From contig JBDTAZ010000033.1 in assembly GCA_039924325.1 (NCBI GenBank), positions 1-48,679 of the forward strand: 48,679 nt of DNA, in the 5' to 3' direction. Source of the stretch: Gemmatimonadaceae bacterium. Lineage in GTDB: Bacteria; Gemmatimonadota; Gemmatimonadetes; Gemmatimonadales; Gemmatimonadaceae. The position numbers were made by a program, and so were the translations under genes. The notes beneath the pieces were generated by a model. That model had not been told where the DNA came from and made no database searches. It saw only the letters and a list, made by a program, of their open reading frames with translations. Position 1 is the stretch's first letter, and each line of letters opens with the position of its first letter. Below are positions 1 through 48,679 of the stretch, in pieces.

Positions 1-79
1 TGACGGGGCCCTCGTCCGACCGACGCGCCAAGTGCAGGGCACAGATTACGCCGTACTCGGCCCAGGTGGTGATCCGCAT
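1..79 (-). CDS. Rrf2/IscR-family transcriptional regulator, N-terminal fragment running off the left edge
   Basis: Open-ended, so absent from the ORF track. The minus-strand ATG at 79..77 reads MRITTWAEYGVICALHLARRSDEGPV..., a typical Rrf2 N-terminal wHTH opening. No clear SD upstream. Confidence 0.5.
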   Translation of the reverse strand, partial: MRITTWAEYGVICALHLARRSDEGPV

Positions 80-177
80 ACATGGAGGATACCGGGGCGG
101 ACGGCGCGGAGCAAGGGTTGAGGGGCTCCGCATCGACGCGGCACCCCTATCCTGCTCGTACTGGAACTGTCAAAGAC

Positions 178-3100
178 TTACTGTGAGAAGTACATCCGGA
201 TGGACTTACCGTTCATAAAATCGGTGATGAATTGGGATAGATACGGCATCTGCGACGAGGAGAGGATTCCTCGAATTAACGGCCGCTCGCGCATCGTTAT
301 AGCCTCCGCGGAATCGGAGCTTGCCCGACTGAATTCAAGTAGCTCCGCGGACGTTCTATTATCGGAGTTAATGACTATCACCTCAGCAAGTACATGCCAT
401 ACGGAATCCATGCGTGCGCGGTACGGGATATCCGCTGAGCCAAGGCTGTCGAACTGTGCGCGCGACAGGAATAACGAGTCGCTCTCTTCGCGAATTTCCT
501 GATACACGTCAGGGACCGAGCGCGAGTAACGAGCCTGAATCGCTGCAACACGTTCAGTTTCGGAGCCTGTGTGACGTGACGCATCCTCGATTGACCGGCC
601 GAACATCTGCTCGTCAGTCGGCTTGGAAAGATCGATACTCACTTGAAAGCTGACAATAGGGTTCTGAACGTATGAAGGCCTTCCGAAATGAGCGTTTGGT
701 CCAAGTGCGAACGCCTGCTTCGTTGCTGAAAAACCTGTGACGTAATATGCAATCGGGTCCACGCTGGCCGCACCTGCCCAATGCGCGCTGTTGACTGCCG
801 CCAGCGGATTGTCGACAACGAGGCTGATCGTCGTCCGCTGGGATAGGTGCAGCGATTGGCCTTGAGCATCGAGGCGGACCATAGCCAACGCCTGCCAAGG
901 ACCACGGCACCCATTGGTTCCAACCATTCGGCCGGCAGCGCTCTGGAGACACGCCACCGCCGCCTTGTCGCCGGCAACTGGGATGGCGGGATCCGAAAAG
1001 GCGCGGTCGTTGATGAATCCATCCCCGTTCACGTCGCCACCGACGATGGGTGTGTACGGCAGCCCGGACCTAACTTTAACATACGCAGACAACGCCAGAG
1101 CGCGCGGACCATACATCCCACCCATCATCACGAGTTGGTGACGAACATCGTTGCTCGTTGGGCCGTTCGAGAAGTCGAGCGGGTTTCCAGCTGTTGTGCC
1201 TTGGAATCCCTGCATCCGCCCCGTAGTTCGCGAGAGAACGTATGTAAGCGCCCAGAATGGGCGTGGAAAAACACGCGGTGACTGGAGTTCCAGCGTCACC
1301 TGACGACTCAGAGACCTTGCGTCCGATTCGAGGCTGTTCAGATGTACTGCCTGCCGTGGCGCGACGTCTCGCTGCGGGAACGCTCCGCTCGACGCATCTA
1401 TGCTGGATGCGGAGACGTAAACGGGGCGCCCGTTCGCAAGATTGAAAACGGGGTTCCCGGAAAATTGCCGGTCAACCCAATCGGGCTGATCGATATTCAG
1501 CGAAAGTGTCGCATCGGCAGATACAACGAGACGTTTCGTTGGACGACTCCAACCGACGGATGCGCGAACGCTACGCGCAGGCTTGTAGCTTGAAGAGACA
1601 TTTGCGCCGGTGGCGCGGAACGGCGACGATAGCGACGCATCGCACCCAGGATCGGCGTTTCCGCCGTCTACCGCGCTCCAATCTGGGCCCGTCGTTGGAT
1701 TTATGCACTCCATGCGAGATGCGAGAAGCGCCGAAGATTGAGTCAATTGACTCAGCGTAGACGCGCTCGGCCAACTGCTGCGGAACAGCCCAATTCCGCC
1801 GCGGAAAAGATTTGGCGTTTGGGAGGGAAACAATCCAAGCGGTTCCTGGCTGATGTGGAATCGCGGTCCCCACTTGATCCAGCGAAATCCAATTCGCGGG
1901 CTGACTGTCACGTCGCGCAAGGCAGGGCGCTGATCGGCTATGCTGCGCACCAGATCCGAACTCGTGAGCTTCGCGAAATCTGCATCGATTCGTCCACCCA
2001 TCAACACTTGCATTGTCTTGCTTTGACTCCACGTGTCGCCGAACCAAGCGGAAGCCCCGTACGACTGCTCTCGCCACAGGCCCTCATTGCTTGACATAGT
2101 CGCAAAATTCGGCGCGTTGGATTCCAACGCACCGAGACTTTTGTAAGCGAACGTGTGCTGCACCGCGTTGCCGTCTCCAACGCGACTGCCTGTCAGGTTG
2201 ATTGTGGCGCCGTATTTCAGTCGGTGTTTATTACCGCCAACTATCATCTGATGCTCTCGACGCAGCTCGATTCCAGACGTGACGTCGATGTATCCGGACG
2301 GGACTCCTCCCAGTCCTACGCTGCGCAGCGAAGTTGAACCGGTGCTTGGCGGAACGAGAACGCTTATGGCGGGAAAGAGCCAAAGAGGGTCTGTCGTCGA
2401 GCGATCTTGATAGGCGGTCAGGCGCGTTTCGTGTAAAGCCCTGCTCTTCGTAAACTCGGACGTAAATAGCTGCAAGACTGCGCCGGTTGTTTTTGCCGTC
2501 ATCGCCTGCGAACCTGCCGCGCCCGGATTGAGTCCGACTCCAGTCTGCCGGGACGCCGCGAACTGAAGCAGCGCTCCGGCTGAGCTTCGGGAATACGGAG
2601 ATCTGTCAACACGAAAGACAGACGATAAATCACTCCGCGATACGTTGCCAGGTGAGTTGATCGAAACGGACGGAGCGCCGAGTGATGAAAGAGCGTTACG
2701 CAGGCTGGCGCGGGTCGTTCCATCAATTGCAAGAGCGGCCGGAGTCCCGCCGCCCGGCGCAAAAAGAGACGGCGCCGCGAACGACTGGTAGCTTCCTGTA
2801 ATTGCGGCATCTCCGCGATACTCGGTGCGTCCGAACGGTCCGTCGATTGCCGCAGTCGCCTGAACCGACGGTGCTTCACCCGCACTCGCTGGTGGGTTGA
2901 CGCCCATATCGAGTTTCCGGGTTGTAAACTCTCCACCGGGCAACACATCGAATGCGATGTTTGCTCCGCTGAAGCCGCCGAGCGCGGGATCATACGTGGA
3001 AGTAATCGCGCGCGCCTGAACGCGTCCAAAAGAGGGCAGACTGATCGCGCCCGCAGCGCTTCCGCCCAGCGTGGTACTGTTCTGGTCGGTTCCAAGTCCG

Positions 3101-3642
3101 AGGAATGACGGGCCACGAACTCCATCGCCCACGGCGCCTGGCAGTAACTGCAGGAAACCTGCATCGATCGATCCATTGACCGGCTGCGTCACGACCAGGC
3201 CTCCGGTGGCGTCGGTCTCGGCGTTGGAGAAATCCTTGCCGACGGCACGCCACTTTGGAGGCAACGGCCGTCGAGCAGTGACGTGTACGGCCGAAAGTGC
3301 GACAGTATTCGCGTGAAGTACAAAGTCGGCCGTCACGTTTTGTTGCGTGACGGGGACTGTAACCCTGCGCCGCTGCGACTCGAATCCAGTCGCCGCTACG
3401 TGTACGAGAAAATCGCCGCTCGAATTTGTGATGAACGAGCTGAAATGGCCGAAGCCGTCCGTGGAGTCTTGAACGGTACGGCGCGTGGGGGCGATCGTGA
3501 TTGAAACAACCGCGCCGGCGATTGGTTTGCTTGTTGAGTCACGCACGACTCCGGAGACTCGCTGCGTTGTGTCGACGCTCGCGCGAACAGCCGCAGAAGA
3601 CGAGATCGGCAACGCGATGATTCCAATTGCGAGCAGAATCAT
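178..3642 (-). CDS. Large outer-membrane protein: N-terminal carboxypeptidase-regulatory-like domain, TonB-dependent-receptor-like beta-barrel and a ~148-aa helical C-terminal extension
   Basis: 1154-aa ORF. The N-terminus has a short signal-like segment, then VSGVVRDSTSKPIAGAVVSI...DGFGHF...GDFLVHVAATGF (CarboxypepD_reg pattern). A long Gly/Ser/Asn-rich beta-strand-like body follows. It is a clear paralog of the 45043-48679 protein (GGDVNGDG-x-NDRAF and SVWxxL blocks). Its ATG overlaps the upstream stop (ATGA at 3639..3642). Confidence 0.75.
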   Translation of the reverse strand: MILLAIGIIALPISSSAAVRASVDTTQRVSGVVRDSTSKPIAGAVVSITIAPTRRTVQDSTDGFGHFSSFITNSSGDFLVHVAATGFESQRRRVTVPVTQQNVTADFVLHANTVALSAVHVTARRPLPPKWRAVGKDFSNAETDATGGLVVTQPVNGSIDAGFLQLLPGAVGDGVRGPSFLGLGTDQNSTTLGGSAAGAISLPSFGRVQARAITSTYDPALGGFSGANIAFDVLPGGEFTTRKLDMGVNPPASAGEAPSVQATAAIDGPFGRTEYRGDAAITGSYQSFAAPSLFAPGGGTPAALAIDGTTRASLRNALSSLGAPSVSINSPGNVSRSDLSSVFRVDRSPYSRSSAGALLQFAASRQTGVGLNPGAAGSQAMTAKTTGAVLQLFTSEFTKSRALHETRLTAYQDRSTTDPLWLFPAISVLVPPSTGSTSLRSVGLGGVPSGYIDVTSGIELRREHQMIVGGNKHRLKYGATINLTGSRVGDGNAVQHTFAYKSLGALESNAPNFATMSSNEGLWREQSYGASAWFGDTWSQSKTMQVLMGGRIDADFAKLTSSDLVRSIADQRPALRDVTVSPRIGFRWIKWGPRFHISQEPLGLFPSQTPNLFRGGIGLFRSSWPSASTLSQLTQSSALLASRMECINPTTGPDWSAVDGGNADPGCDASLSSPFRATGANVSSSYKPARSVRASVGWSRPTKRLVVSADATLSLNIDQPDWVDRQFSGNPVFNLANGRPVYVSASSIDASSGAFPQRDVAPRQAVHLNSLESDARSLSRQVTLELQSPRVFPRPFWALTYVLSRTTGRMQGFQGTTAGNPLDFSNGPTSNDVRHQLVMMGGMYGPRALALSAYVKVRSGLPYTPIVGGDVNGDGFINDRAFSDPAIPVAGDKAAVACLQSAAGRMVGTNGCRGPWQALAMVRLDAQGQSLHLSQRTTISLVVDNPLAAVNSAHWAGAASVDPIAYYVTGFSATKQAFALGPNAHFGRPSYVQNPIVSFQVSIDLSKPTDEQMFGRSIEDASRHTGSETERVAAIQARYSRSVPDVYQEIREESDSLFLSRAQFDSLGSADIPYRARMDSVWHVLAEVIVINSDNRTSAELLEFSRASSDSAEAITMRERPLIRGILSSSQMPYLSQFITDFMNGKSIRMYFSQ

Positions 3643-4700
3643 TTTGTTCCTGCCGCGCCGGTCGCGAGCCGCAACCTAAGGATGCGAAGCGGGCGCGTCC
3701 GTCCGATGGCGAAAACGGCGCCCTCCACAGCCATTATTCGCCCCGCACGTTCCGGAAGGACATAGCTATGAAGATATGTCGCTGTCGGTACGTCATACTC
3801 GTCTATCAGTCGATCGCGGTCAAGAGTGCTTCCAGCGAATAGCACGTAAAGTTTGTCTCCGTCAACTGCGATACTGATAGCGGATCGCGTCGATCGCAGG
3901 ACTTCTGTCGTGATGCCATTCGAAGAATCGAACTGGAGCAGATCCGGGAATTTTGTCGCTTCAACGTATACTCCGGTATACCTTCGGCCGGTCGTACTCG
4001 ACACAGTCCAACCGTCGCCGTAGACGAACCCGACCGCCCAGTTGCCGCGACTATCCGTGGTGAGGTCGGTGGCGCGTGCGAGAGCATCGAGCCGCCCATA
4101 AAACGTCCACGGCAACGCAAAACCACGGATTACGCCTCCGGAACCAGCAACCAACAGCACCGGCGAAGCACTCGAATCACTCAACACCAGTAAGGTATCG
4201 AATCCGAACGCCGCTATGCCATCGGCGTTCGTGACTGCCTTAATCGAGACAGGCACACCCGCCCCTCCAACCCGTTTGATGGCGCGGGTCTTCCCGTCAA
4301 GAACCCACGCCCGATCATCGCTCGACGCCGCTAACTCAACCGGAAAGGGAGCCTGCGTATCTGCTGCGAAACGCAAGGAGGCGCGCCATCGCGATTTCAT
4401 CTTCCAGTCCACGGACACCACGGAATCCGCGCTCGCGTCGATGTAGTCGATGCCCGAGTGGGTGATGGCTACGTGTTGGGCATACTGGGGGCCCGCCGCA
4501 CTGAACTGATACACGGTATCCCAGCGCGACAAGACGATTTTCCGTGTGCCCCCGCGTTGCGCTCCTCCAATTGAGTGTTCGGAAATCACTCTAGTATGAC
4601 CATCGCGGGCTCTTGCGCAACCGTCGGATAACGCGGTTATTGTTACGATCCCAACGCAGGCAAGTAAGGTAACTTGCCTGCGAGCTGTGTCAAACGTCAT
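3639..4700 (-). CDS. Hypothetical exported/anchored protein with beta-propeller-like repeats
   Basis: 353-aa ORF with an N-terminal hydrophobic segment (VTLLACVGIVTITALSDGC; the lipobox is not canonical). It has recurring strand-turn motifs such as DDRAWVLDG, DSRGNWAVGFVYGDGW, VDGDKLYVLFAG and EGAVFAIG. There are 4-nt overlaps with both neighbours (4697..4700 and 3639..3642). The fold call is by eye only. Confidence 0.5.
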   Translation of the reverse strand: MTFDTARRQVTLLACVGIVTITALSDGCARARDGHTRVISEHSIGGAQRGGTRKIVLSRWDTVYQFSAAGPQYAQHVAITHSGIDYIDASADSVVSVDWKMKSRWRASLRFAADTQAPFPVELAASSDDRAWVLDGKTRAIKRVGGAGVPVSIKAVTNADGIAAFGFDTLLVLSDSSASPVLLVAGSGGVIRGFALPWTFYGRLDALARATDLTTDSRGNWAVGFVYGDGWTVSSTTGRRYTGVYVEATKFPDLLQFDSSNGITTEVLRSTRSAISIAVDGDKLYVLFAGSTLDRDRLIDEYDVPTATYLHSYVLPERAGRIMAVEGAVFAIGRTRPLRILRLRLATGAAGTK

Positions 4701-5233
4701 AGGGCTTGCCGCACCGTTGCGATAGACACGATTTCGGGTGGTAGGAAAACGCGCGTAATTCGCCCGACGGTGTCGATGAGGATAGCAAATGGGGTTGCAC
4801 GAATCGACAAAGCACCCATCACGAACACCGCATCGCGCGTATCAATCACATGCACACTAGCCTGCAGTCCACTGGCGGCAGCGACAGACTCGGCCTCTTT
4901 CTCAGATAGGTCATCGTCAACAAAGGTAGCATCGACATTAACGATGTTTGAGAGGTGAGAGTCAAGAGCATCCAACGCATCGATGGCGGTCGCGCAGTCG
5001 CGAGGCTGCATTACTAAAACCAACCTTGGCCGTGCGAAATTGCCTCCGCTTGGCGAAAGGCCAAGCATGCGCATGAACGGACGTCGCGTTTCCGCCAGCC
5101 GACGCGCCTGAAGCGCTACGGTCGCCACCAATACCGCCAGAACTATCCAAGGAGCAATGTTCAACACGCGCTCAACGATTTTGGACCGAGCATGACCAAA
5201 CATACCCCTCCTAAGTCTTTCCCACTGTTGCAT
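4697..5233 (-). CDS. Membrane-anchored thioredoxin-fold (TlpA/ResA-like) protein with a monothiol C-A-T-A in place of CxxC
   Basis: 178 aa with one N-terminal TM (IAPWIVLAVLVATVALQA). The layout is TlpA-like: RPRLVLVMQPRDCATAIDALDALD at the position of the usual hhhFWASWCxxC motif, and a later ATPFAILIDTVGRI (cis-Pro loop plus D..G.I pattern). Only one Cys sits at the active-site position. Confidence 0.5.
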   Translation of the reverse strand: MQQWERLRRGMFGHARSKIVERVLNIAPWIVLAVLVATVALQARRLAETRRPFMRMLGLSPSGGNFARPRLVLVMQPRDCATAIDALDALDSHLSNIVNVDATFVDDDLSEKEAESVAAASGLQASVHVIDTRDAVFVMGALSIRATPFAILIDTVGRITRVFLPPEIVSIATVRQAL

Positions 5234-5297
5234 TCAATCAGACATAGGTGCCGCGTGATCGGTTCGAAGGTCACACGGCACCCATTCTGACACACCA

Positions 5298-5516
5298 CTA
5301 CTGCGGATCAGGAAAGTAAAAAGAGTCCGTGTGACAAACCTTGACTAATCCGATGGTCACGCACACTTGCGTAGTGCTACACAGCGGCAGGGTCATGCCA
5401 CTGCAACGCGAGGAATCGGCTCGGACGGCCTTCGTCGGGACTGCAAGCGCGAGGACAACAACGCCGACGCCACTCGCCAAACCAAGTACCTTGAGAACTG
5501 CAACTTTGGTTATCAC
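5298..5516 (-). CDS. Small secreted four-cysteine peptide precursor, copy A (72 aa if started at GTG 5516)
   Basis: The track ORF 5298..5582 (94 aa) is trimmed here. The GTG at 5516 is preceded by GGAG 9 nt upstream and gives 72 aa, exactly the length of copy B, with a gapless alignment. An alternative ATG lies at 5531. It has a Sec-type leader ...ALAVPTKAVRA, then a 39-aa Cys-rich mature part. Confidence 0.6.
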   Translation of the reverse strand: MITKVAVLKVLGLASGVGVVVLALAVPTKAVRADSSRCSGMTLPLCSTTQVCVTIGLVKVCHTDSFYFPDPQ

Positions 5517-5768
5517 TATCCGTATCTCCATGCAGGTGAAACCACGCGGGCGCAGAAAGTGTTCCTGCAACCCATCTCGCATGTATCAGCCCAACAGGAG
5601 GGTCTGCTACGCGATTCATGCGGCATTCCCGATGTACTTCGACTGCGCATGTTGGACAGTTCGCTTGCCTTCGCAAACTGGCCGACGAGCCATAACGGTT
5701 CTCAGTCATGCAGACTGCCGTTATAGCAAACGCGGGTGGTGCTGGCCGTCACGGTCCGCTGACTCGCG

Positions 5769-5987
5769 TCATTCCGGACTTTCGCGGTAGTAGTAGTTCG
5801 TTGTGCAAGTAATCACCTTGAGCAGGGTGTCACAGTGCTGCGTGTGATTGCAACTTGGCGTAACCATACCGTCGCATCCTGTGTCGGCAGCGAGAGCCGG
5901 CTTCGTCGGCACGGCCAACGCCGCAATTCCCGCCCCAATACTCCCCACGAGCGCCACCAGCTTTAGAACGGTGCTTGTCCTTGCCAT
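5769..5987 (-). CDS. Small secreted four-cysteine peptide precursor, copy B (72 aa)
   Basis: ATG preceded by GGAGACAAC (SD about 5 nt upstream). Leader is MARTSTVLKLVALVGSIGAGIAALAVPTKPALA and the mature part is ADTGCDGMVTPSCNHTQHCDTLLKVITCTTNYYYRESPE. It is paralogous to copy A with all four Cys in register. Confidence 0.7.
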   Translation of the reverse strand: MARTSTVLKLVALVGSIGAGIAALAVPTKPALAADTGCDGMVTPSCNHTQHCDTLLKVITCTTNYYYRESPE

Positions 5988-6047
5988 GTTGTCTCCGGTA
6001 AACGGGATACTTCTGTGCCGGGCGCGTGAACACCATATGCTGCACCC

Positions 6048-6658
6048 TCACAATATTTGGTTCCCCTTAGTAAGGTAGTGTTCGCATTTTCGGCCCGCTA
6101 TGCGTTTCCCGGCCAAATGATGCTGAATCCAGCCAAATTCACCGCTCGCATACGCCCACGGCGCGCGAAAGGGTACAAATGGAGTTCGCCAAGTGACTCG
6201 AGGCATATAGTTGCCGATCGCGACGCAACTCGCCGAGACGATTAGTGCGATGACGATTGGTTCGCGGCTGGCTCCGATATACCCAAGCGCTGTACAAATC
6301 GTGAAGACGTGAATCGCCAGCAGGAGCGCCAGAACTGCAACGACGATGGTACCGTACACCGGGCGAGATGTCGACGAATCGGACGCCCGATTCGAGTATC
6401 TGCTGAAGACTGATGCGTCGTAGCGCGGCAGCAAAATGAGCAGCAAAATGAGCAGCTACCAGATCACCAGCATCACGACGGGTGCAATGAGCGCGCCAGT
6501 CAGCGGGCCGCGAAACCATTGGGCTGGCCTGAAAATCCCCAATGCGTAGCAATACGCGCCGGGAGATGTGGATACGCAAACGCGGACAGCGCGAATGCCG
6601 CCACGATGAGTACAACCGAAACTACCCTTGTATGATCACGCATCTGCCTGTCCGTCAT
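6048..6658 (-). pseudogene. SdpI/YhfL-family (DUF1648 + SdpI domain) membrane protein, apparently disrupted by a frameshift and an in-frame TAG
   Basis: The N-terminal piece (ORF 6500..6700; likely start ATG 6658 or 6643) carries the DUF1648 motif YPHLPARIATHWGFSGQPNGF. The C-terminal piece (ORF 6048..6446) carries the SdpI motif IGNYMPRV...FRAPWAYASGE-W. The connecting segment reads GPLTGALIAPVVMLVIW (a good TM helix) in the downstream frame. That segment is cut off from the N-terminal piece by a frame change near 6500-6510 and from the C-terminal piece by TAG at 6458..6456. Confidence 0.55.
6428..6456. repeat. 12-bp tandem duplication GCAGCAAAATGA x2.4 inside the SdpI-like gene
   Basis: Plus strand reads gcagcaaaatga gcagcaaaatga gcagc. 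On the coding (minus) strand this duplicates LLIL -> LLILLLIL. It abuts the in-frame TAG at 6456..6458. Confidence 0.9.
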
Positions 6659-6920
6659 TCGATGAAGCCCGTGTCCATTCAGCGAGCCGCGCCAGGACAT
6701 CCTGAAATACGGTGGTTGCCAACTCGTAACGCATAAACTGACCTTCCTTCTCGGCGCTTATCAGGCCCGCATCCCGGAGCACACTGAGGTGCCGCGAGAT
6801 TGTCGGCCACGATGAGCCGAACTGTTCCGCGATCTCTCCCGAAGTCCGGGATCCGGCACGAAGCTGGTCGAGAATTGCGCGCCGCGTCGGATCCGCGAGC
6901 GCGCGGAATGCGTCGGTCAC
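6636..6920 (-). CDS. ArsR-family transcriptional repressor of the SdpR (autorepressor) type
   Basis: 94 aa: MTDAFRALADPTRRAILDQLRAGSRTSGEIAEQFGSSWPTISRHLSVLRDAGLISAEKEGQFMRYELATTVFQDV... This matches the SdpR-type pattern F.ALADPTRR.IL..L......G.IAE.F..S.PTIS.HL..L..AGL.....GQ...Y.L. The GTG start overlaps the hydrolase stop (GTGA, 6917..6920). Its 3' end overlaps the SdpI-like start. Confidence 0.85.
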   Translation of the reverse strand: MTDAFRALADPTRRAILDQLRAGSRTSGEIAEQFGSSWPTISRHLSVLRDAGLISAEKEGQFMRYELATTVFQDVLARLAEWTRASSNDGQADA

Positions 6921-7897
6921 CGCGATTGCGGCGCCGAACGCACATACGCGGCGATCGCCGAAATGAGTTCCGGAGGAATTGGCACAGATGGATCGGTGTA
7001 CACACCGGCAACCTGCGCGGTTGCGTCGGCAGGCCCGATCTTCAGGACGTGTGTCATGCCGTCAATCTTCAGCAGCTTTGCACCAGGCGCGGCCGCCAGA
7101 AGATTCGCGTCGTCCATCGAGACCTGTATGTCGTGCGTTCCCTGCACTATCAACGTCGCGTACGGCAGCTTTTTCAGGTCAGCGGCTGGGTCGTGGCGAA
7201 ACCACGAAATGAGGTATGGTTGCACACTTGGACGGAACAGCGCGGCGAGCGAAGGGGGAATGCTGTCGACAGTCTTGCCGGTCGAGAGACTGTCGAGAAT
7301 CGGACCGAATATCGCGGCCGGGGCACCGCCTGCTGTGAGCTGTTCGCGGATGACTACGGCTGCGGGCCTGCCAGCGCCCTCGAGCGAGACGAAGCCGTCG
7401 GCCTTTTCGCGCTCGGCGGCGTCCATTCCAACAAGCGATCCCTCGCTGTGACCGACGACAACGACCTTGGAGAATCGAGGATCGGCGCGAAGCAGCTTGA
7501 TCCAGGCCGCGGCGTCGTTGATTCCAGTGTCGAAGCGATAATCGCTCTCGGTGTGTCCTGCCATCGCGCCGGCACTCGCGGCGACGCCACGTTTGTCGTA
7601 GCGGACGGAGGCGATGCCATCGGCCGCGAGATCAGCCGCTAGGATCTTGTACGTGTCAGGATGCAGCAGCTTGCCAGGAACGACCTGAATGGGCGAATTG
7701 CCATCCCGATCAGTGGGGCCGGAGCCAGCGATGATGAGAACCACTGGATGCTTGCCGCCCCCCGGAGGGACGACGAGTGAGCCGAACAGGTCGCCGGTCG
7801 GGGTCTTCAGCGTGATGGGCTGGGAAGCAACGCTGTCGGCTGGCGCGGGAAGCGCCGAACCGGCTGCCATGGAGGCGACGAAGAGCGCGGTGAGCAT
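6917..7897 (-). CDS. Secreted alpha/beta-fold hydrolase
   Basis: 326 aa with an N-terminal signal-like MLTALFVASMAAGSALPAPA and the nucleophile elbow VVVVGHSEGSLVG. PVVLIIAGSGPTDRDGN is a typical pre-elbow strand, and a late GTHDIQV/MTHVLK region could supply the Asp/His. Confidence 0.8.
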   Translation of the reverse strand: MLTALFVASMAAGSALPAPADSVASQPITLKTPTGDLFGSLVVPPGGGKHPVVLIIAGSGPTDRDGNSPIQVVPGKLLHPDTYKILAADLAADGIASVRYDKRGVAASAGAMAGHTESDYRFDTGINDAAAWIKLLRADPRFSKVVVVGHSEGSLVGMDAAEREKADGFVSLEGAGRPAAVVIREQLTAGGAPAAIFGPILDSLSTGKTVDSIPPSLAALFRPSVQPYLISWFRHDPAADLKKLPYATLIVQGTHDIQVSMDDANLLAAAPGAKLLKIDGMTHVLKIGPADATAQVAGVYTDPSVPIPPELISAIAAYVRSAPQSR

Positions 7898-7927
7898 TCT
7901 TTGGGGTCGTTGGTTTAGTTATTAAGC

Positions 7928-7956
7928 AAATTAGCTAAGTAACGAAGCTTACGCAA
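7928..7956 (-). promoter_or_regulatory. Candidate sigma70-type promoter for the hydrolase-sdpR-like operon, with a palindrome over the -10
   Basis: The minus strand reads TTGCGT (7956..7951), 17 nt, TAATTT (7933..7928), about 30 nt upstream of ATG 7897, in the only AT-rich patch here. The perfect palindrome TTAGCTAA (7931..7938) overlaps the -10 and is a possible operator for the ArsR/SdpR-like repressor. Prediction by eye only. Confidence 0.3.
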
Positions 7957-8027
7957 TGTCCGACTGTCTTGCGACCGGATGCGGGGACTCGAGTGTCATC
8001 CCGCCGAAGGCCGGGATGAATATGCGC

Positions 8028-9431
8028 TTACGCGCCCGGAATTCCGATCTCTGTCATCTTCGCAAGATCCAGCACCTTGTCGATCTCGGCGTCGGGAATG
8101 ACATGCTCGCGTTTCACGAGATCGCGAATCAAGACGCCTTCCTTCACAGATCGTTTGCTGATGTCGGCCGCCTTGGCGTAGCCGATCTGCGGCGCGAGCG
8201 CGGTTGCCAGCGCCGCCGAGCGTTCAACCCAGTAGGCACACTGTGCGGCGTTCGCTTCGATCCCGACAACACACTTGTCCGCGAATACGCTGGAAGCGGT
8301 GGATAGAATGTGTTCCGCCAGCAGCACGTTGAACGCGATCACCGGCATCATCACGTTGAGCTCAAGCTGGCCGTGTTCGGTTGCCGCGGCGACGCATGCG
8401 TCGAGGCCGACGATCTGGAAGCAGACTTGGTTCACCATCTCCGCGATCGATGGGTTGATCTTGCCGGGCATGATCGATGATCCGGGCTGCACTGCGGGAA
8501 GTGTGATTTCGTCGAGCCCGGTGCGCGGGCCGCTGACCATGATGCGCAAATCGCTCGCGATCTTGCTGAGATCGATCGCGAGAACCTTCATTGCTGCGCT
8601 GAACGCGGCAGCGTCGCCCATACTTTGCATGAGCTGAATGCGATCAGTACCGGCGCGCAGCTTGCCGTCCAGCATTTCGTTCAAATGCTTGACCATCAGC
8701 GCCGGATATTGCGGCTCAACGTTGACGCCGGTCCCAACGGCGCTGCCGCCGATGCCGAGATCGCGAAGATAATCGGCCGCCTCGTTCACGCGTTTGAGTC
8801 CGCGCGCGAGTGTGCCTGCGAATGCCTTGAATTCCTGACCGAGCCGGATCGGCATCGCGTCCTGAAGATGCGTGCGACCGGCCTTGATGATGCCGTCGAA
8901 TTCCTTGCCCTTTGCTTCGAACGCATCGATGAGCGACTGCATAGCCTTGTTCAGCTTTGGCAACTCGGCGAGGCAGCCAATCCGGATAGCGGTCGGGATC
9001 ACGTCGTTGGTCGATTGCGCCATGTTGACGTGATCATTCGGATGCACGGGCGAGTACTTGCCGCGTTCGCTTCCGAGCATCTCGTTAGCACGATTGGCCA
9101 GTACTTCGTTGATGTTCATGTTGTGCGAGGTACCGGCTCCAGCCTGATACACATCCACGATGAACTGATCACGCCACTTGCCGCCGAGCACTTCGTCTGC
9201 GGCGGCGATGATGGCATCGGCGAGTCGCGTTTCGAGTCGGCCGGTTTCCTTGTGAGTGAGTGCCGCGGCGCGCTTGATGCGCACTACGGAATCCACGAAA
9301 GCCGGAAGCGGGCGCATGCCGCTGATCGGAAAGTTTTGTACTGCGCGCAGTGTCTGCACGCCATACATCGCGTCGGCTGGAACCGCGAGTTCGCCGAGTG
9401 GATCTTTTTCAGTGCGCGTTGCGTTTGACAT
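8028..9431 (-). CDS. aspA: Aspartate ammonia-lyase (class II fumarase/aspartase family)
   Basis: 467 aa. The N-terminus R-EKDPLGELAVPADAMYGVQTLRAVQNFPISG is aspartase-like rather than FumC-like. The family signature GSSIMPGKINP is present. FumC cannot be fully excluded without alignment. Confidence 0.75.
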   Translation of the reverse strand: MSNATRTEKDPLGELAVPADAMYGVQTLRAVQNFPISGMRPLPAFVDSVVRIKRAAALTHKETGRLETRLADAIIAAADEVLGGKWRDQFIVDVYQAGAGTSHNMNINEVLANRANEMLGSERGKYSPVHPNDHVNMAQSTNDVIPTAIRIGCLAELPKLNKAMQSLIDAFEAKGKEFDGIIKAGRTHLQDAMPIRLGQEFKAFAGTLARGLKRVNEAADYLRDLGIGGSAVGTGVNVEPQYPALMVKHLNEMLDGKLRAGTDRIQLMQSMGDAAAFSAAMKVLAIDLSKIASDLRIMVSGPRTGLDEITLPAVQPGSSIMPGKINPSIAEMVNQVCFQIVGLDACVAAATEHGQLELNVMMPVIAFNVLLAEHILSTASSVFADKCVVGIEANAAQCAYWVERSAALATALAPQIGYAKAADISKRSVKEGVLIRDLVKREHVIPDAEIDKVLDLAKMTEIGIPGA

Positions 9432-10059
9432 TTGCTATTCCGTTCAGAAAAGGGTTGCTATCGAGCTCATCGCCGATTGTAGTCGTGCCACCGTGTCCAG
9501 GATACACAGTCGTCTCGCGCGGCAAGTCAGCCATGATGGCCAGCGTCTGCTGCATGTGCTCCGAGTTGGCCATTGGAAGATCGGTGCGACCAATCGAGCC
9601 GGCGAACAGCACATCGCCGGCAAGCACAATTCCGTTGCCAAAGAAAACGACATGCCCTGGGCTGTGACCGGGAGCATGAATTACGTCGAAGTCGAGGCCT
9701 CCGACGTGGACGACATCTCCGTGCGCCAACTCCCGATTCGGAGCTTCGGGCTGCTCAAACGGGACTCCGTACTGCTCGGCGAAGAGCGACGCGGCCTCGT
9801 AGACGGGACCATCGATCGGATGCATGTAGACTGGGATGTCGCCGAATTGACGGCGGATCTCTGAAATTGCTCCGATGTGATCCAAGTGTGCGTGTGTAAG
9901 CCATACTGCGTCGAGTTTGGCACCACAAGACTCGACCATCTCGACAATGTGTTCACCGTCATCGCCGGGATCGACGAGCACCGCGTGCTTTGTATCGTCG
10001 TCGATCACGAGGTACGTGTTTTCCCGGAACGGGCCAACCTCGCGCGAGACTACTCTCAA
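9409..10059 (-). CDS. MBL-fold metallo-hydrolase (glyoxalase II-like)
   Basis: 216 aa with the THAHLDHIG metal-binding motif, then HAPGHSPGH and GDVLFAGSIGRTD. Overlaps the trxB stop by 4 nt. Confidence 0.8.
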   Translation of the reverse strand: MRVVSREVGPFRENTYLVIDDDTKHAVLVDPGDDGEHIVEMVESCGAKLDAVWLTHAHLDHIGAISEIRRQFGDIPVYMHPIDGPVYEAASLFAEQYGVPFEQPEAPNRELAHGDVVHVGGLDFDVIHAPGHSPGHVVFFGNGIVLAGDVLFAGSIGRTDLPMANSEHMQQTLAIMADLPRETTVYPGHGGTTTIGDELDSNPFLNGIANVKRNAH

Positions 10060-42724: not shown

Positions 42725-43096
42725 GTGCAGCGTCTGACACCGCGCGAAATCGAGCTAATGAACGTGCTGTGGGAGCGGGGTCCTAGTACCGTCGCCGAGG
42801 TAAGGGATGCGCTGGACGATGGATCGGCGTACACAACCATCCTGACGTTGTTGCGACTCCTCGAGGAAAAGGGGCACGTCGCACGCGAGGCGGAGGGGCG
42901 AGCGCATCGATATGGCGCCCTCGTCGATCGCGATCGAGCGAGTTCCAGCGCGATTGACCGCGTGCTCGGGCAGTTCTTCAGTGGTTCCCCGGAGGAGCTG
43001 TTGACGCAGATGGTATCGGATCACGATCTGGACGACGCGACGTTGCGTCGCCTGCGGAAGCTCTTGGACGAACGCCTCGAGGAGAACTCGAAATGA
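42725..43096 (+). CDS. BlaI/MecI/CopY-family transcriptional repressor
   Basis: 123 aa: LTPREIELMNVLWERGPSTVAEVRDAL....AYTTILTLLRLLEEKGHV. GTG start. 4-nt overlap with the downstream gene. Confidence 0.88.
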   Translation: MQRLTPREIELMNVLWERGPSTVAEVRDALDDGSAYTTILTLLRLLEEKGHVAREAEGRAHRYGALVDRDRASSSAIDRVLGQFFSGSPEELLTQMVSDHDLDDATLRRLRKLLDERLEENSK

Positions 43097-44865
43097 CATT
43101 TACATTCTTCGTCTATCTGCTGATTGTCACAACGCTTCTCGCGGGAGCAGCGGCTGCGGCCGAGTGGGGAGCGCCTAGGCGCGGTGCGACGAGACACATA
43201 TGGACCGCCGCGATTGCGCTATCGATTCTGGGACCGGCTACTGCTATTACGTGGCAGGTATTGTCCCAGCGCGAAGGCACGGCCGACGTGGTTTCGCTCG
43301 GCGCGCTGACTAGCGGCGTAACGGAACTAGCGCCTGTGCAGATGGGTCCTGCGCATCCATCCGTATGGACCGATATCACACAGGCAGTCACGAGCCTTCG
43401 GTCTGGAGTTGGACGGTTTGCCGAGTCGATGCCTCAGTGGAGTCCGCAAGCAGCCAAATTGGCGCTTGCGGCATGGCTGCTCCTGTCGCTCGCGCTTTCC
43501 ATCTGGCTGCTGGCGAGCGTGTATTCGTTGCGCCGTTCGCAGCGAGAGTGGAAGCGAATGACAATAGACGGCGTCGACGTGGACGTTTCCCCGTCCGCCG
43601 GCCCGGCGGTGTTCGGCTTTACGTCGCATCGAATAGTGCTTCCCGAGTGGGCAACCAGGCTCGAGCTTGAGCGGCGCCAACTGATTATTGCGCACGAGAG
43701 CGAACACATCAAAGCGCGCGACCCGCAGCGGCTTGCGATGGCGCTCGTGACGCTGATGGTTATGCCGTGGAACATCGCGTTGTGGTGGTGTGCGGCGCGG
43801 CTCCGTCGAGCCATCGAACTGGATTGTGACGACCGTGTGCTTCGGAGATTTCCAGATGCCAAGGAGTACGGCTACGTCCTGCTCCACGTCGCGTCGCGTG
43901 GCCGGAACTCAAGTCGGCTCGCGATACCGATGGTGTCGTTGCTGCGAATGCCATCCGAGTTGGAACTTCGGCTTCGGGCAATGAGCCGGACGAGAAAGTC
44001 CGGGTACAGAAGCGCAGTTATGGGCGCTGTGGTCGCGCTGGTTGCGGTGTCGGCTGCGTTTACCGCTCCAGCGCCATGGCCGGCACCAGCTGACGCAGTC
44101 TCCGGTGTAAGCGCGAACTACGCGGCGACTGATCGCGCGAGCGACACCGTGCCGGATAGAGCGAGGCAGCGCCTGAGGGATAGCCTGACCAACGACTCGA
44201 TAGCACGCACCGTTGAGCGCGGTCAAGCCAACCCGAATCAAACGTATTTCGCGTACCAGGTGGAGAAGCCCGCATATATGCGCTCGGGTTCGCCAGAGTA
44301 TCCAGCGAAGCTTCGCAGTGCCGGCATAGAAGGAGAAGTAGACGTCGAGTTTACCGTGGATACATCTGGCCGAGTAGATCCAAATACAGCAATCAAGGTT
44401 ACCAAGTCGACCAATGATCTCTTCGAGGCCGCAGTGCTCAGCGCGCTTCCGATCATGCGGTTTTCACCGGCGGAAGTTGGCGGCAGGAAGGTCAAGCAGC
44501 TTGTGCAAGAACCGTTCACATTCGCAATCAGCAACTCCACGGAGCCAAGCAATCCGCACGCTCCATATTCCGCGAAGCAGGTAGAAAAGCCGGTCGCCTT
44601 CCGCCGGGGGTCGCCGATGCCCCAATACCCGCCTAGTTTGAGGGCGCAAGGAGCGGGAGGCGAAGTGCACGCGCAGTTTGTGGTGGATACTCTTGGGCGA
44701 GTAGAACGAGGATCAATCAGATTGACAATGTCAACCAACCGGCAGTTTGCTGAAGCCGTGTTGACGGCGCTGCCGAACATGCTGTTCATCCCGGCAGAGA
44801 TCGGGGGGAAAAAGGTAAGACAACTCGCGCAGGAACCGTTCACGTTCACAATTTCGCACCAATGA
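43093..44865 (+). CDS. M56 (BlaR1-like) membrane metalloprotease-sensor fused to two tandem TonB_C domains
   Basis: 590 aa with N-terminal TMs and the zinc motif IIAHESEHIKARD (HExxH). TonB_C domain 1 runs about 44238..44535 (YPAKLRSAGIEGEVDVEFTVDTSGRVD...). Domain 2 runs about 44560..44862 (YPPSLRAQGAGGEVHAQFVVDTLGRVE...). Confidence 0.85.
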   Translation: MTFTFFVYLLIVTTLLAGAAAAAEWGAPRRGATRHIWTAAIALSILGPATAITWQVLSQREGTADVVSLGALTSGVTELAPVQMGPAHPSVWTDITQAVTSLRSGVGRFAESMPQWSPQAAKLALAAWLLLSLALSIWLLASVYSLRRSQREWKRMTIDGVDVDVSPSAGPAVFGFTSHRIVLPEWATRLELERRQLIIAHESEHIKARDPQRLAMALVTLMVMPWNIALWWCAARLRRAIELDCDDRVLRRFPDAKEYGYVLLHVASRGRNSSRLAIPMVSLLRMPSELELRLRAMSRTRKSGYRSAVMGAVVALVAVSAAFTAPAPWPAPADAVSGVSANYAATDRASDTVPDRARQRLRDSLTNDSIARTVERGQANPNQTYFAYQVEKPAYMRSGSPEYPAKLRSAGIEGEVDVEFTVDTSGRVDPNTAIKVTKSTNDLFEAAVLSALPIMRFSPAEVGGRKVKQLVQEPFTFAISNSTEPSNPHAPYSAKQVEKPVAFRRGSPMPQYPPSLRAQGAGGEVHAQFVVDTLGRVERGSIRLTMSTNRQFAEAVLTALPNMLFIPAEIGGKKVRQLAQEPFTFTISHQ

Positions 44866-44924
44866 CGACCTATCAAAACATGCGCGGGTGTTGACTGAGC
44901 CTGCAACATTTGCGCATGTAGGAC

Positions 44925-44948
44925 GTGGCCGCTGGTACTGGCGGCCAC
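44925..44948 (+). terminator. Hairpin after the blaR1-like gene (weak terminator/attenuator candidate)
   Basis: GTGGCCGC-TGGTACTG-GCGGCCAC is an 8-bp perfect GC-rich stem with no T-tract. Confidence 0.3.
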
Positions 44949-45042
44949 GCCGAAGCGGGGACATGTTATCGCTGTAACTCGCGCTTACACGGACGGGTAA
45001 GTTCATATTCGACTCGGTGCGCATGAAACGTGATCCATCGCA

Positions 45043-48000: not shown

Positions 48001-48679
48001 GAAGGGCCGTGGACAACTGCGCTCAATGCGCAGCTCAGCTACAGCCGCGAGATGCCATTCACACAACAATACGGTACAATTTCTCTCGCGTTTTCCAACC
48101 CCCTTGGCGGACTGGATCAGTTGCTCCACGGCGCAAATCATCTGCGAGGATGGGGGACCGCTGCATACCCGGATCCGGTGCTCTACACACCACGCGGATT
48201 TGATCCTGCGGCCGAGCGCTTCAAATACGTGATCAATCCGCGCTTCGGAAATACGCAGCCGTCGAACACGCTACTACGCTCACCGTTCCGCGTCACCCTC
48301 GACGTCTCTTTGACGGTCGGCCGCACTCTGCCGCAGCAACAGCTCAATCAGTGGATCAAGCCGGGCCGCGGCGGACGCAAGGGACCAAAATTGTCTGTCA
48401 AGGAACTCACTCGGCGCTACGCCCGCAACGTCCCCAACCCATACACCGACATACTCGAGCAATCGGATTCGTTGCTGCTGACTCGAGATCAGGCAGACGC
48501 GCTTACCAAGGCGGACACTGCGTATCGCCAACGAATAGACAGCGTCTGGACGACGCTCTCCGAATACCTCTCCGCGCTTCCGGATGATTTTGATTCTGCG
48601 GACGCTTTGCAGCATCAGGAAAATGCGGTGGAAAGCGCGTGGGAACTGACGCGGAACGATCTGAACAAGACCTTACCCA
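45043..48679 (+). CDS. Large outer-membrane protein (CarboxypepD_reg + TonB-dependent-receptor-like barrel + C-terminal extension), 3'-truncated by the window edge; paralog of 178..3642
   Basis: Absent from the ORF track because it has no stop in the window. The frame is open from the TGA at 45031 to the end, with first ATG at 45043. The other two plus frames are broken by listed short ORFs. It reads MLNSAQEIAAAPTLRGIGSNSRLRWFTIAVALFGSVAMASALAAQ, then TIRGAVTTDSGAVISGADVIIT...ASGHYSLEF..GDYLVHISAVGY. Later blocks are GGDVNGDGLANDRAFIF, CEGPW, and NVPNPYTDILEQSDSLLLTRDQADAL...IDSVWTTLSEYL, matching the first OMP. Confidence 0.8.
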   Translation, partial: MLNSAQEIAAAPTLRGIGSNSRLRWFTIAVALFGSVAMASALAAQTHHDTIRGAVTTDSGAVISGADVIITMAPARESRATKADASGHYSLEFELGTGDYLVHISAVGYGTLRKRVTRSGTDSVFTVNAKLAKAGVQKLATVQVTAEKPMPQRMNGVYGTGVGAAEDIADGLLGAVNPDQAGNLAAIGATIAGIAMTPGGLSVGGLRGQNSTTLNGMAFSGADIPRAAQTDIRVSRSTYDPALGWFGGLNQAVYLSEGNIFSSRKVDLTIDTPLLQYTDPISARMGHRFTNINADFGGDGSIDQDKYIYSYGLHAGLRKSDVVSLGGAAPDLLQRAGVSADSAARLFDILSAAGVPRTTQKSPSSLESPDATFIARIDHAPYNWTTFEPSKTTWGLLAYGKLAHDNATGITPTATAAYGGSSSSAIGMLQALYSTYIHGDYLNEERSAFSYSRDHSEPFLSLPGGRVLVASSFPDGTGGLTSLDFGGNGGLLSDTRRWTWETTSETQFYAHGRQAHRVKLNADSRLDGISEETPVNSLGTFAFNSLADLSANQAASFTRSLNNPGLTGSVWNGFLAASDMWRISSSFQLLYGARLEGNRYTSSPASNPAVESTFGLRTDQTPNTAHLSPRIGFTWVRHSPNNSGTGTEFNRFGQFHFGPVSYVRGGIGEFRSILPADLLTGASSATGLPDGHESITCVGSATPVPDWSQYTSDSGLIPTQCVGGSAPAFSDGAPSVQLFDPAYTAPRTWRANLAYSSTYKNYFTYSLEGLYSLNINQAGRRDVNFADVERFTLSDEGRPVFVDPGSIVSTSGVVSTVDARVSPLFGQVIDNVSTLTSRSKQLTLGISPLLQGVRNWYVSLNYTLAQSRAKESGFDGSTFGSPLARDWGRGDLDIRHQVLLRGGYGFKNFSLTLFGRLQSGLPFTPMVGGDVNGDGLANDRAFIFNPATMGDASLASATRALLASSSQNVRDCLTQQTGHAAARNSCEGPWTTALNAQLSYSREMPFTQQYGTISLAFSNPLGGLDQLLHGANHLRGWGTAAYPDPVLYTPRGFDPAAERFKYVINPRFGNTQPSNTLLRSPFRVTLDVSLTVGRTLPQQQLNQWIKPGRGGRKGPKLSVKELTRRYARNVPNPYTDILEQSDSLLLTRDQADALTKADTAYRQRIDSVWTTLSEYLSALPDDFDSADALQHQENAVESAWELTRNDLNKTLP

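Follow-up and report, generated by a model that had tools for sequence, protein, structure and literature searches.

A tandem pair of predicted secreted four-cysteine peptides heads a conserved five-gene cassette in a Gemmatimonadaceae bacterium

Introduction

Two short open reading frames (ORFs) lie on the minus strand, in otherwise non-coding gaps, of a 48,679-nucleotide stretch of DNA from a Gemmatimonadaceae bacterium (contig JBDTAZ010000033.1 of assembly GCA_039924325.1). The whole of this stretch is referred to below as the window. An earlier note, made from the sequence alone, described the ORFs as a tandem pair of paralogous 72-residue peptides with a secretory leader and four cysteines, and considered their size, leader, cysteine framework and duplication typical of bacteriocin or peptide-pheromone precursors. 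The locus raises two questions: are these ORFs genes and, if so, in which pathway would their products take part? Both ORFs are real coding sequence under selection, and they head a conserved five-gene cassette that holds most of the functional information. The three other genes encode a predicted membrane-anchored thioredoxin-fold protein, a predicted lipoprotein with an NHL-repeat propeller and a giant protein that is probably located in the outer membrane. We consider it close to certain that the locus represents a real family of secreted peptides with a dedicated, conserved cassette. The pathway that the cassette would serve is proposed below with less confidence.

Results

The two ORFs derive from an old duplication

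The ORFs, designated copy B and copy A, were recovered as the earlier note had described them, including the GTG start of copy A and the spacing of the ribosome binding sites.

5987 to 5769, minus strand: peptide copy B (position 1, upstream); ATG start; 72 amino acids, 219 nucleotides with the stop codon.
5516 to 5298, minus strand: peptide copy A (position 2, downstream); GTG start; 72 amino acids, 219 nucleotides with the stop codon.

Each ORF is preceded by a GGAG ribosome binding site, at positions 5996 to 5993 for copy B (5-nucleotide spacer to the ATG) and 5529 to 5526 for copy A (9-nucleotide spacer to GTG 5516). Support for initiation of copy A at this GTG comes from metagenome locus L011, whose ortholog (P0003, 76% identical) keeps both the GTG and the upstream GGAG. 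A 94-residue form of copy A starting at an ATG was excluded, as the frame of this ortholog opens just 8 codons upstream of the GTG.

The two copies align without gaps, with 28 of 72 residues identical when the initiator is scored as methionine (about 29 had been counted by eye) and a BLASTP E value of 5e-16. Nucleotide identity at the first, second and third codon positions is 39, 41 and 22 of 72, respectively, the latter value being at random level, and the proportions of synonymous (pS) and nonsynonymous (pN) differences are 0.82 and 0.43. This pattern, in which third positions are randomized and first and second positions are kept, indicates an old duplication maintained at the protein level. 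The DNA flanking copy A does not align with that flanking copy B. Together, the codon-position pattern and the unalignable flanks rule out recent gene conversion or chance as the source of the likeness between the copies.

The sequences share the pattern C-x-G-M-x2-P-x-C-x2-T-Q-x-C-x-T-x6-C-x-T-x3-Y-x3-P, and the four cysteines are in register (C-x7-C-x5-C-x8-C), exactly as the earlier note had it. The signal peptide of copy B is predicted to span residues 1 to 33 (...ALAVPTKPALA/A, the slash marking the predicted cleavage site). Both predicted mature peptides comprise 39 residues: ADTGCDGMVTPSCNHTQHCDTLLKVITCTTNYYYRESPE for copy B (4364.8 Da with two disulfides, isoelectric point of about 5.0) and DSSRCSGMTLPLCSTTQVCVTIGLVKVCHTDSFYFPDPQ for copy A (4233.8 Da with two disulfides, isoelectric point of about 5.3).

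The peptides belong to a previously undescribed family under purifying constraint

A profile built from copies A and B was run exhaustively with HMMER against 1.84 billion representative proteins. This search returned 16 proteins, namely copy B itself, 14 real relatives (E values from 1e-29 to 6e-4) and P0016, a repeat protein that was discarded as a false positive. Copy A was missing from the gene calls of the protein collection. Unannotated members were added by scanning the fetched loci with a hidden Markov model (HMM) of the family, which brought the total to 19 distinct members of 69 to 92 residues. Their mature parts are mostly acidic and comprise about 36 to 46 residues (54 in one member). 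They follow the pattern (D/E)-R-C-x-G-x3-P-x-C-x5(6)-C-x8-10-C-T-T-(D/N/E)-(Y/F/S)-(Y/F)-Y-(F/Y/W)-P, in which C, G, P, C, C, C and Y are invariant.

Other searches returned few sequences. Word-indexed protein searches with the peptide pair, and with the 353-residue protein encoded further downstream in the cassette, retrieved the window's own proteins only, and the same type of search with a 16-member peptide alignment retrieved 7 proteins only. Nothing was found in GTDB representative genome contigs with the 353-residue protein, and a pattern scan of metagenome contigs gave no match. The sole match of CTT[DEN][YF][FY]YFP in GTDB representative genomes (L010) was spurious, being contained in a subtilase gene of the opposite strand.

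Comparison of the peptides with Pfam, NCBIfam, PADLOC and, by sequence profile, the PDB gave no credible family match, in agreement with the earlier note, whose author could name no family. A match to TIGR04117 in one of 16 members was judged compositional, and none of the 16 members matched PF14055 (NVEALA) at E ≤ 1. The peptides therefore constitute a previously undescribed family. Both the family and the architecture of its gene cluster are new, within the broad and known kind of disulfide-containing peptides that are exported and served by dedicated accessory proteins.

Reading frames are intact in all 19 members. The ratio of nonsynonymous to synonymous substitution rates (dN/dS) is 0.17 between copy A and its ortholog P0003, and ranges from 0.20 to 0.36 in six other ortholog pairs. 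Among the outcomes that would speak against its claim, the earlier note had named a lack of homologs with the conserved cysteine pattern and a dN/dS near 1; homologs with this pattern exist and dN/dS is well below 1 in every pair. The ORFs might alternatively be chance open frames in intergenic DNA, a reading to which the omission of copy A from the gene calls and the absence of database annotations lend some colour. This alternative is already refuted by the data, and we assign it practically no probability, given the E value of the paralog alignment, the randomization of position 3 with conservation of positions 1 and 2, the intact homologs in independent metagenomes, the low dN/dS, and the conservation of the start codon and ribosome binding site. 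Thus, both ORFs are real coding sequence under selection, as had been argued from the pair alone.

A predicted Sec leader precedes a predicted disulfide hairpin

Signal peptides and cleavage sites were called by simple rules. All 19 members contain one to three lysine or arginine residues among residues 1 to 10, a hydrophobic core (maximum 10-residue Kyte-Doolittle mean of 2.0 to 3.2) and a small-x-small site, mostly AxA, located before the first cysteine and usually followed by acidic residues. The Sec-type leader and AxA-type site reported for copies A and B are therefore features of the whole family. They point to a Sec signal peptide at the N-terminus and to a site for signal peptidase I, at which the precursors would be cleaved.

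The leaders of both copies contain the block ALAVPTK, which had been described as invariant and as a possible recognition element. Its invariance holds between copies A and B and their closest relatives, P0003 and P0004, but not across the family, since ALAVPTK is present in these four sequences only and the other clades have either [ST]P[RK][TV]AxA or nothing comparable. Conservation in the window's clade alone argues against a recognition element of the family, and the block is best read as the predicted c-region of the signal peptide.

A model of the peptide computed with AlphaFold2 (AF2) from the 16-sequence alignment had a mean predicted local distance difference test (pLDDT) score of 60. 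It contains a beta-hairpin formed by residues 46 to 55 and 58 to 67, with a local pLDDT of up to about 84, which places Cys46 and Cys52 opposite Cys61. Foldseek found no related fold for this model. The mature peptides probably form a two-disulfide beta-hairpin, with a putative pairing of the four cysteines, that carries the conserved aromatic tail T-T-D-Y-Y-Y-F-P.

In the family tree, the position-1 and position-2 peptides of loci L001, L002 and L016 form separate clades, and within the window's clade an A-type lineage (copy A and P0003) and a B-type lineage (copy B and P0004) have both been kept. This topology indicates that the pair has been retained since an ancient duplication, which argues against redundancy of the two copies. 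The paralogs probably act as a non-redundant pair.

The peptide genes are linked to three larger genes

Downstream of the peptide genes, and likewise on the minus strand, the window contains three larger genes. The gene order is peptide B, peptide A, thioredoxin-like, NHL and giant envelope protein, and a stem-loop separates the peptide genes from the others.

5237 to 5294, minus strand: stem-loop of about 23 bp, directly after the stop codon of copy A and before the next gene; free energy of -36.7 kcal/mol, z score of -2.95.
4697 to 5203, minus strand: membrane-anchored thioredoxin-fold protein (predicted), 168 amino acids from ATG 5203, which is preceded by AGGAGG, or 178 amino acids from ATG 5233.
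3639 to 4700, minus strand: NHL-repeat six-bladed beta-propeller (predicted), probable lipoprotein, 353 amino acids; signal peptide and Cys28.
178 to 3642, minus strand: giant envelope protein, 1154 amino acids; signal peptide, N-terminal CarboxypepD_reg domain, four conserved cysteines and helical C-terminal domain.

Start and stop codons of neighbouring larger genes overlap in the form ATGA, at 4700/4697 and 3642/3639. Genes for a family peptide, a thioredoxin-like protein and an NHL protein are adjacent in the window, in L001 (forest soil), L002, L003, L004 to L009, L011, L013/14, L015 and L016, and on the Joint Genome Institute (JGI) contig that carries P0004. More generally, every metagenome locus of sufficient length has these neighbours beside a family peptide (about ten independent loci), as confirmed with local HMMs. 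The giant outer-membrane gene comes after these three in the window, in L001, L002 and L016, and on the P0004 contig, whereas in L012 it is located ahead of the peptide. The usual order, peptide(s), thioredoxin-like, NHL and outer-membrane gene, is permuted in L004 (NHL, peptide, thioredoxin-like) and L013 (thioredoxin-like, NHL, peptide), which indicates that the linkage of the first three survives rearrangement. The five cassette genes diverge at similar rates.

Tandem peptide pairs are present in the window, L001, L002, L003 and L016. The P0004 contig may harbour another, but its upstream 80-residue gene could not be read. A third class of peptide paralog is encoded directly after the giant outer-membrane gene in L016 (10448 to 10669) and L012 (320 to 541); the third copy of L016 and P0017 are 63% identical in their mature parts and are sisters in the tree. 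No such third peptide is encoded downstream of the outer-membrane gene in positions 1 to 177 of the window, which contain the start of an Rrf2-like gene.

The linkage bears on the possibility that the peptides have nothing to do with the proteins encoded beside them. The thioredoxin-like, NHL and outer-membrane proteins would then form a unit of their own, in which the thioredoxin-like protein serves the cysteines of the outer-membrane protein, and the peptides would be independent periplasmic proteins sharing a promoter. The four conserved cysteines of the outer-membrane protein are compatible with this explanation, as is the translational coupling of the three larger genes to one another and not to the peptide genes. 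We nevertheless regard it as improbable because the peptides stay with the thioredoxin-like and NHL genes despite the rearranged order in L004 and L013, because L016 and L012 encode a third peptide paralog after the outer-membrane gene, and because a paralog of the outer-membrane protein encoded at position 45043 of the window has the same cysteines, yet no thioredoxin-like, NHL or peptide neighbour.

Only 1 of 200 shuffled sequences folds as well as the stem-loop at 5237 to 5294. GC-rich hairpins of differing sequences occur at the same place in other loci, a suggestive recurrence, although only that of L003 (z score of -2.18) nears significance. As a candidate attenuator or mRNA stabilizer, the stem-loop would set the peptide genes, with high expression, apart from the accessory genes. 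An Rfam scan of the window returned nothing, and a scan for promoter and terminator consensus sequences was uninformative.

Two loci displayed particular surroundings. In L003, where the arrangement is atypical, the thioredoxin-like gene is followed by genes for a 328-residue HExxH protein (2967 to 3953), possibly a metallopeptidase, with no Pfam match, and for a second DUF5128-like propeller (4103 to 5446). In L001, the region upstream of the cassette (1 to 9950) looks mobile and encodes an integrase of phage type, several toxin-antitoxin pairs (Gp49/HTH_37 and PIN) and Imm40; the cassette of this locus may lie in or beside a genomic island.

The thioredoxin-fold protein has a single conserved cysteine

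The first of the larger genes more likely starts at ATG 5203 than at ATG 5233, judging from the AGGAGG preceding the former and from the ortholog in L011. Its 168-residue product had no match in Pfam or NCBIfam. A profile of nine orthologs searched against the PDB retrieved 3lor, a thiol-disulfide isomerase (E value of 6.7e-4), followed by 3eyt and ResA. The AF2 model (pLDDT of 75.5, predicted template modelling score of 0.63) consists of a long N-terminal helix (residues 5 to 39) followed by a thioredoxin-like domain (beta-alpha-beta-alpha-beta-alpha-beta-beta-alpha). Foldseek gave 44 matches at E ≤ 1e-3; the top matches were almost all extracytoplasmic, mostly membrane-anchored, thiol-disulfide oxidoreductases, including ResA (1.7e-5), DsbE/DsbF, CcmG, TlpA, StoA and SdbA.

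D69-C70 occupies the canonical active-site position, at the first turn of helix 1, and is invariant in the nine orthologs, as are L132, G147 and T137-P138 of the cis-Pro loop. None of the nine has the second cysteine of the CxxC motif, position +3 being A, T, G, N or Y (C-A-T-A in the window). Since only the first cysteine is invariant, the 168-residue protein is predicted to be a monothiol, membrane-anchored member of the ResA/TlpA/CcmG-like thioredoxin fold. It would share with the ResA/CcmG (DsbE)/TlpA/StoA family the fold, the N-terminal membrane anchor and the T-P cis-Pro loop, and can be likened to it for dedication to specific substrates. It differs from this family by the replacement of the defining CxxC by C-x-x-[A/T/G/N/Y]. 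With a lone nucleophilic cysteine, a thioredoxin fold is able to rearrange the disulfides of a substrate by attacking them, or to retain a client through a mixed disulfide, but not to perform net oxidation or reduction. In this respect, the chemistry of the monothiol protein would be closer to that of the CxxS isomerase variants of protein disulfide isomerase, or to that of ERp44 (CRFS), which holds clients by mixed disulfides.

The structural relatives of this protein raise the possibility that the peptides capture a ligand or a metal, that their cysteines are kept reduced by the ResA/TlpA-like protein, and that the loaded peptide is retaken through the outer-membrane protein. TlpA and CcmG keep cysteines reduced for copper and haem sites. 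The four invariant cysteines of the peptides fit this scheme, as do the closest structural relatives ResA, CcmG and TlpA, which are reductases preparing cysteine ligands, a weak SCO1/SenC match in one member, and the combination of a receptor-like outer-membrane protein with a propeller lipoprotein. However, the cysteine spacing of the peptides (7/5/8-10), without CxxC and without conserved histidine, is typical of structural disulfides, the predicted hairpin puts the cysteines on paired strands, and a single-cysteine partner cannot complete a reduction cycle alone. We consider metal capture quite unlikely.

The NHL protein is a predicted propeller with a possible binding role

A profile of the 353-residue protein matched the NHL domains of Thin and TRIM71 in the PDB (E values of 9e-19 to 1e-18, with 3 to 5 matched stretches) and those of TRIM2/3 (about 1e-15). 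The window protein itself did not match Pfam DUF5128; two of five members did, with a best E value of 1.1e-5, and precomputed annotations grade these matches as weak. By these profile matches the protein is an NHL six-bladed propeller, and the lipobox-like cysteine present in its orthologs makes it a probable lipoprotein. No histidine or cysteine of the propeller is invariant in the ortholog alignment, which favours a binding role over a catalytic one. In the public gene call, this protein is 316 residues long and is deprived of its signal peptide by the choice of an internal GTG as start; the orthologs support ATG 4700.

In another reading, the peptides are precursors of ribosomally synthesized and post-translationally modified peptides (RiPPs). 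The N-terminal region, ALAVPTK included, would then be a leader recognized by a modifying enzyme, a part for which the NHL propeller is one candidate, and the tyrosine-rich tail would be modified. ALAVPTK is kept between the paralogs despite synonymous codon differences at 4 of 7 positions, the Y-Y-Y-F-P tail is strongly conserved, and six-bladed propellers, NHL proteins among them, include enzymes; one NHL ortholog has a weak match (E value of 1.8e-5) to the scytonemin NHL protein ScyF. Against these observations, the N-terminus shows every feature of a Sec signal peptide, ALAVPTK is missing outside the closest clade, and the propeller has no invariant histidine or cysteine suggestive of a catalytic metal site. 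Furthermore, no gene for a radical SAM enzyme, YcaO, a Lan enzyme (LanB/C/M), a RiPP recognition element or PqqD, a leader protease or an ATP-binding cassette (ABC) transporter of the C39 type was found at any locus by Pfam and NCBIfam analysis of the neighbours and in precomputed Pfam annotations of about ten loci. There is thus little chance that the peptides are RiPP precursors.

The association of a propeller with a thioredoxin fold has a precedent in NHLRC2-type proteins, which unite an NHL propeller and a thioredoxin-like domain in one chain. In the cassette, these two folds are likewise found side by side, but in separate, adjacent and translationally coupled genes; the likeness to NHLRC2 is one of description. 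The cassette proteins also differ in their predicted location in the envelope and in the single cysteine of the thioredoxin-like part.

The giant protein is a divergent candidate outer-membrane barrel

Residues 29 to 109 of the 1154-residue protein match PF13620 (CarboxypepD_reg, E value of 5.7e-12), a domain also present in its orthologs and in its paralog. Matches to the outer-membrane beta-barrel family PF25183 were detected in the orthologs of L016 (8.8e-6) and L001 (0.008), both below the gathering score. The protein has an extra helical C-terminal domain of about 150 residues. Taken together, these features suggest that it is a probable, highly divergent outer-membrane beta-barrel of the Oar/TonB-dependent-transporter type. 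In Myxococcus xanthus, secretion of PopC from the periplasm depends on Oar, a TonB-dependent transporter that carries PF13620 as an N-terminal extension (PMC6434023). The 1154-residue protein resembles Oar by the presence of an N-terminal PF13620 domain on an envelope protein of more than 1000 residues. It differs by the lack of a detectable Plug or TonB_dep_Rec domain, by PF25183 matches that are weak and limited to orthologs, and by the extra helical domain. Oar also offers a precedent for the outward movement of a periplasmic protein, and the window paralog of the giant protein adjoins TonB_C domains, as follows.

42725 to 43096, plus strand: BlaI-type repressor.
43093 to 44865, plus strand: BlaR1 M56 peptidase fused to two TonB_C domains.
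45043 to 48679+ (reaches the window end), plus strand: paralog of the 1154-residue protein, full-length, 30% identical (E value of 2e-114).

The paralog lies directly after the other two genes, and the segment from 42725 to 48679 looks like a trans-envelope signalling module. Its position beside the BlaR1-TonB_C fusion ties the family of the giant protein, indirectly, to TonB-type transduction. At about residues 640 to 670 and 850 to 915, the four conserved cysteines are common to the giant protein and its paralog, and so is a motif, GDVNGDGxxNDR, reminiscent of a calcium-binding loop.

These neighbours suggest another role for the cassette, namely an uptake or sensing machine. The outer-membrane protein would act as receptor or transporter, with the NHL lipoprotein as the partner that captures its ligand, and the peptides would be accessory subunits or cognate (autocrine) ligands that are sensed or re-imported. 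A propeller lipoprotein capping a TonB-dependent transporter is known, as BtuG associates with BtuB in Bacteroides. The location of the paralog after BlaI and BlaR1 with its two TonB_C domains, the acidic and not toxin-like character of the peptides, and the co-divergence of all five genes, as expected of a complex, are consistent with such a machine. Conversely, no regulator or signal-transduction gene is conserved inside the cassette, the layout of peptides, hairpin and accessory genes is typical of a production operon, and a released peptide would still require an export route. Sensing or uptake is on balance unlikely, but deserves consideration as a serious alternative.

Comparison with known peptide systems

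The proposal that the peptides are bacteriocin or pheromone precursors gained no support. Across the loci, neither a small membrane immunity gene nor a histidine kinase or regulator is conserved beside the peptides, no ABC/C39 exporter or RiPP enzyme is encoded with them, and the mature peptides are mostly acidic. The peptides showed no sequence similarity to known disulfide-bacteriocin families in Pfam and NCBIfam.

The organization of the cassette is nonetheless reminiscent of Sec-dependent class II bacteriocin operons and sublancin-type operons, in which a small precursor, sometimes in tandem, heads the operon and carries an N-terminal export signal, structural disulfides are present (predicted in our case), and a thioredoxin-fold protein is encoded in the cluster. 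In Bacillus subtilis, the sublancin gene sunA is accompanied by bdbA and bdbB, which provides a peptide operon with a dedicated thiol-disulfide oxidoreductase. The differences are that the host of the window is a diderm, that the peptides are acidic, that immunity and ABC transporter genes are lacking, that the thioredoxin partner is monothiol, and that the cassette includes two additional proteins, the NHL lipoprotein and the giant outer-membrane protein.

Bacteroidetes possess uncharacterized clusters that combine NVEALA small proteins, DUF5128/BF3164-type six-bladed propellers and TlpA-like proteins. We mention them as a lead only; our literature search on NVEALA and DUF5128 found no papers. 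They would share with the cassette an exported small peptide, a propeller lipoprotein (a weak DUF5128 match here) and a thioredoxin-like protein, but the lineage differs and the window-type peptides match neither PF14055 nor any other Pfam family.

Two further genes are located directly upstream of the peptide genes.

6048 to 6700, minus strand: broken gene for an SdpI-like membrane protein; DUF1648 part (6500 to 6700) in another frame, in-frame stop near 6447.
6636 to 6920, minus strand: SdpR-family repressor (NF033789, E value of 5e-31).

The syntenic P0004 contig encodes an intact SdpI of 225 residues; the broken gene of the window is either a pseudogene or the result of an assembly error. 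In both the window and the P0004 contig, an SdpR-family repressor gene and an SdpI-like gene thus lie directly upstream of cysteine-containing peptides, a juxtaposition that recalls the SdpC/SdpI/SdpR system of B. subtilis. However, the peptides have no relationship to SdpC, genes for SdpA and SdpB are lacking, the window has a disrupted SdpI-like gene, and SdpR and SdpI are absent from the other loci. An SdpC-like toxin was rejected on the basis of the lack of a family match of the peptides, the broken SdpI-like gene and the lack of conservation elsewhere, and little weight is given to these clade-specific neighbours.

In summary, assignment to a named family failed, as we found no immunity gene, RiPP enzyme, CxxC motif, detectable Plug, barrel match above the gathering score, or match to SdpC or NVEALA. 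By analogy, the cassette somewhat resembles Sec-dependent disulfide bacteriocin operons with their own thiol-disulfide oxidoreductase, on the one hand, and Oar-mediated secretion, on the other.

Discussion

We propose that the cassette encodes a production line located in the cell envelope. The peptides would be exported by the Sec machinery and, following removal of the signal peptide, enter the periplasm. The membrane-anchored monothiol ResA/TlpA-like protein would then attack and reshuffle their disulfides, as a form of proof-reading, or retain the peptides as mixed disulfides. The folded peptides would be bound by the NHL propeller lipoprotein and, finally, carried across the outer membrane, or displayed or docked there, by the giant CarboxypepD_reg-headed protein, in analogy to Oar. 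We infer each of the protein-peptide interactions of this scheme, the direction of transport, and any extracellular activity, as a toxin or as a signal. The operon layout, with the peptide genes first, then a hairpin and three coupled accessory genes, fits such a production line; structural peptide genes followed by a hairpin and accessory genes are the usual layout of production operons.

Several observations weigh against this proposal. The peptide model is of low overall confidence. Mature peptides that are mostly acidic are unusual for membrane-active bacteriocins, and no immunity gene is conserved next to the peptides across the loci. The 1154-residue protein had no match in Pfam to Plug (PF07715), even at E ≤ 5, or to TonB_dep_Rec (PF00593), and no PDB match for a barrel by phmmer or profile search, in which at most the N-terminal domain aligned. 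Similarly, hhalign comparison with a bona fide TonB-dependent transporter headed by CarboxypepD_reg (L016, 1614 to 4094) aligned the N-terminal domain only. The four conserved cysteines of the giant protein could be served by the thioredoxin-like protein instead of those of the peptides, and the giant protein could import or sense the peptide, as the location of its paralog beside the BlaI/BlaR1-TonB_C pair suggests. Finally, most contigs are short, and the completeness of the cassette is therefore visible only in part. In view of these points, we give the production line as a whole, comprising Sec export, disulfide handling, binding by the NHL protein, and passage or docking at the outer membrane, an even chance of being correct.

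A more specific version of the production line can be formulated, and we put it forward only tentatively, as a possibility with the odds against it. It holds that uncultured soil diderms possess an envelope pathway in which a retained pair of disulfide beta-hairpins, which might act as a heterodimer, undergoes proof-reading by a monothiol isomerase or retention protein and is passed by the NHL lipoprotein to a TonB-dependent-transporter-like outer-membrane protein, which secretes or senses it. If this version is true, the pathway would be a second, peptide-specific instance of outward transport through an Oar-like protein, endowed with its own redox quality control. Export of the peptides by the outer-membrane protein would extend the single known case, that of Oar and PopC, to peptides, and would tie it to disulfide quality control.

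Small secreted peptides of diderm soil bacteria are nearly invisible to annotation. The present case supplies a defined peptide family with a clear signature, together with a five-gene cassette. Should the peptides prove to be toxins or signals, they would provide a new scaffold from poorly sampled phyla.

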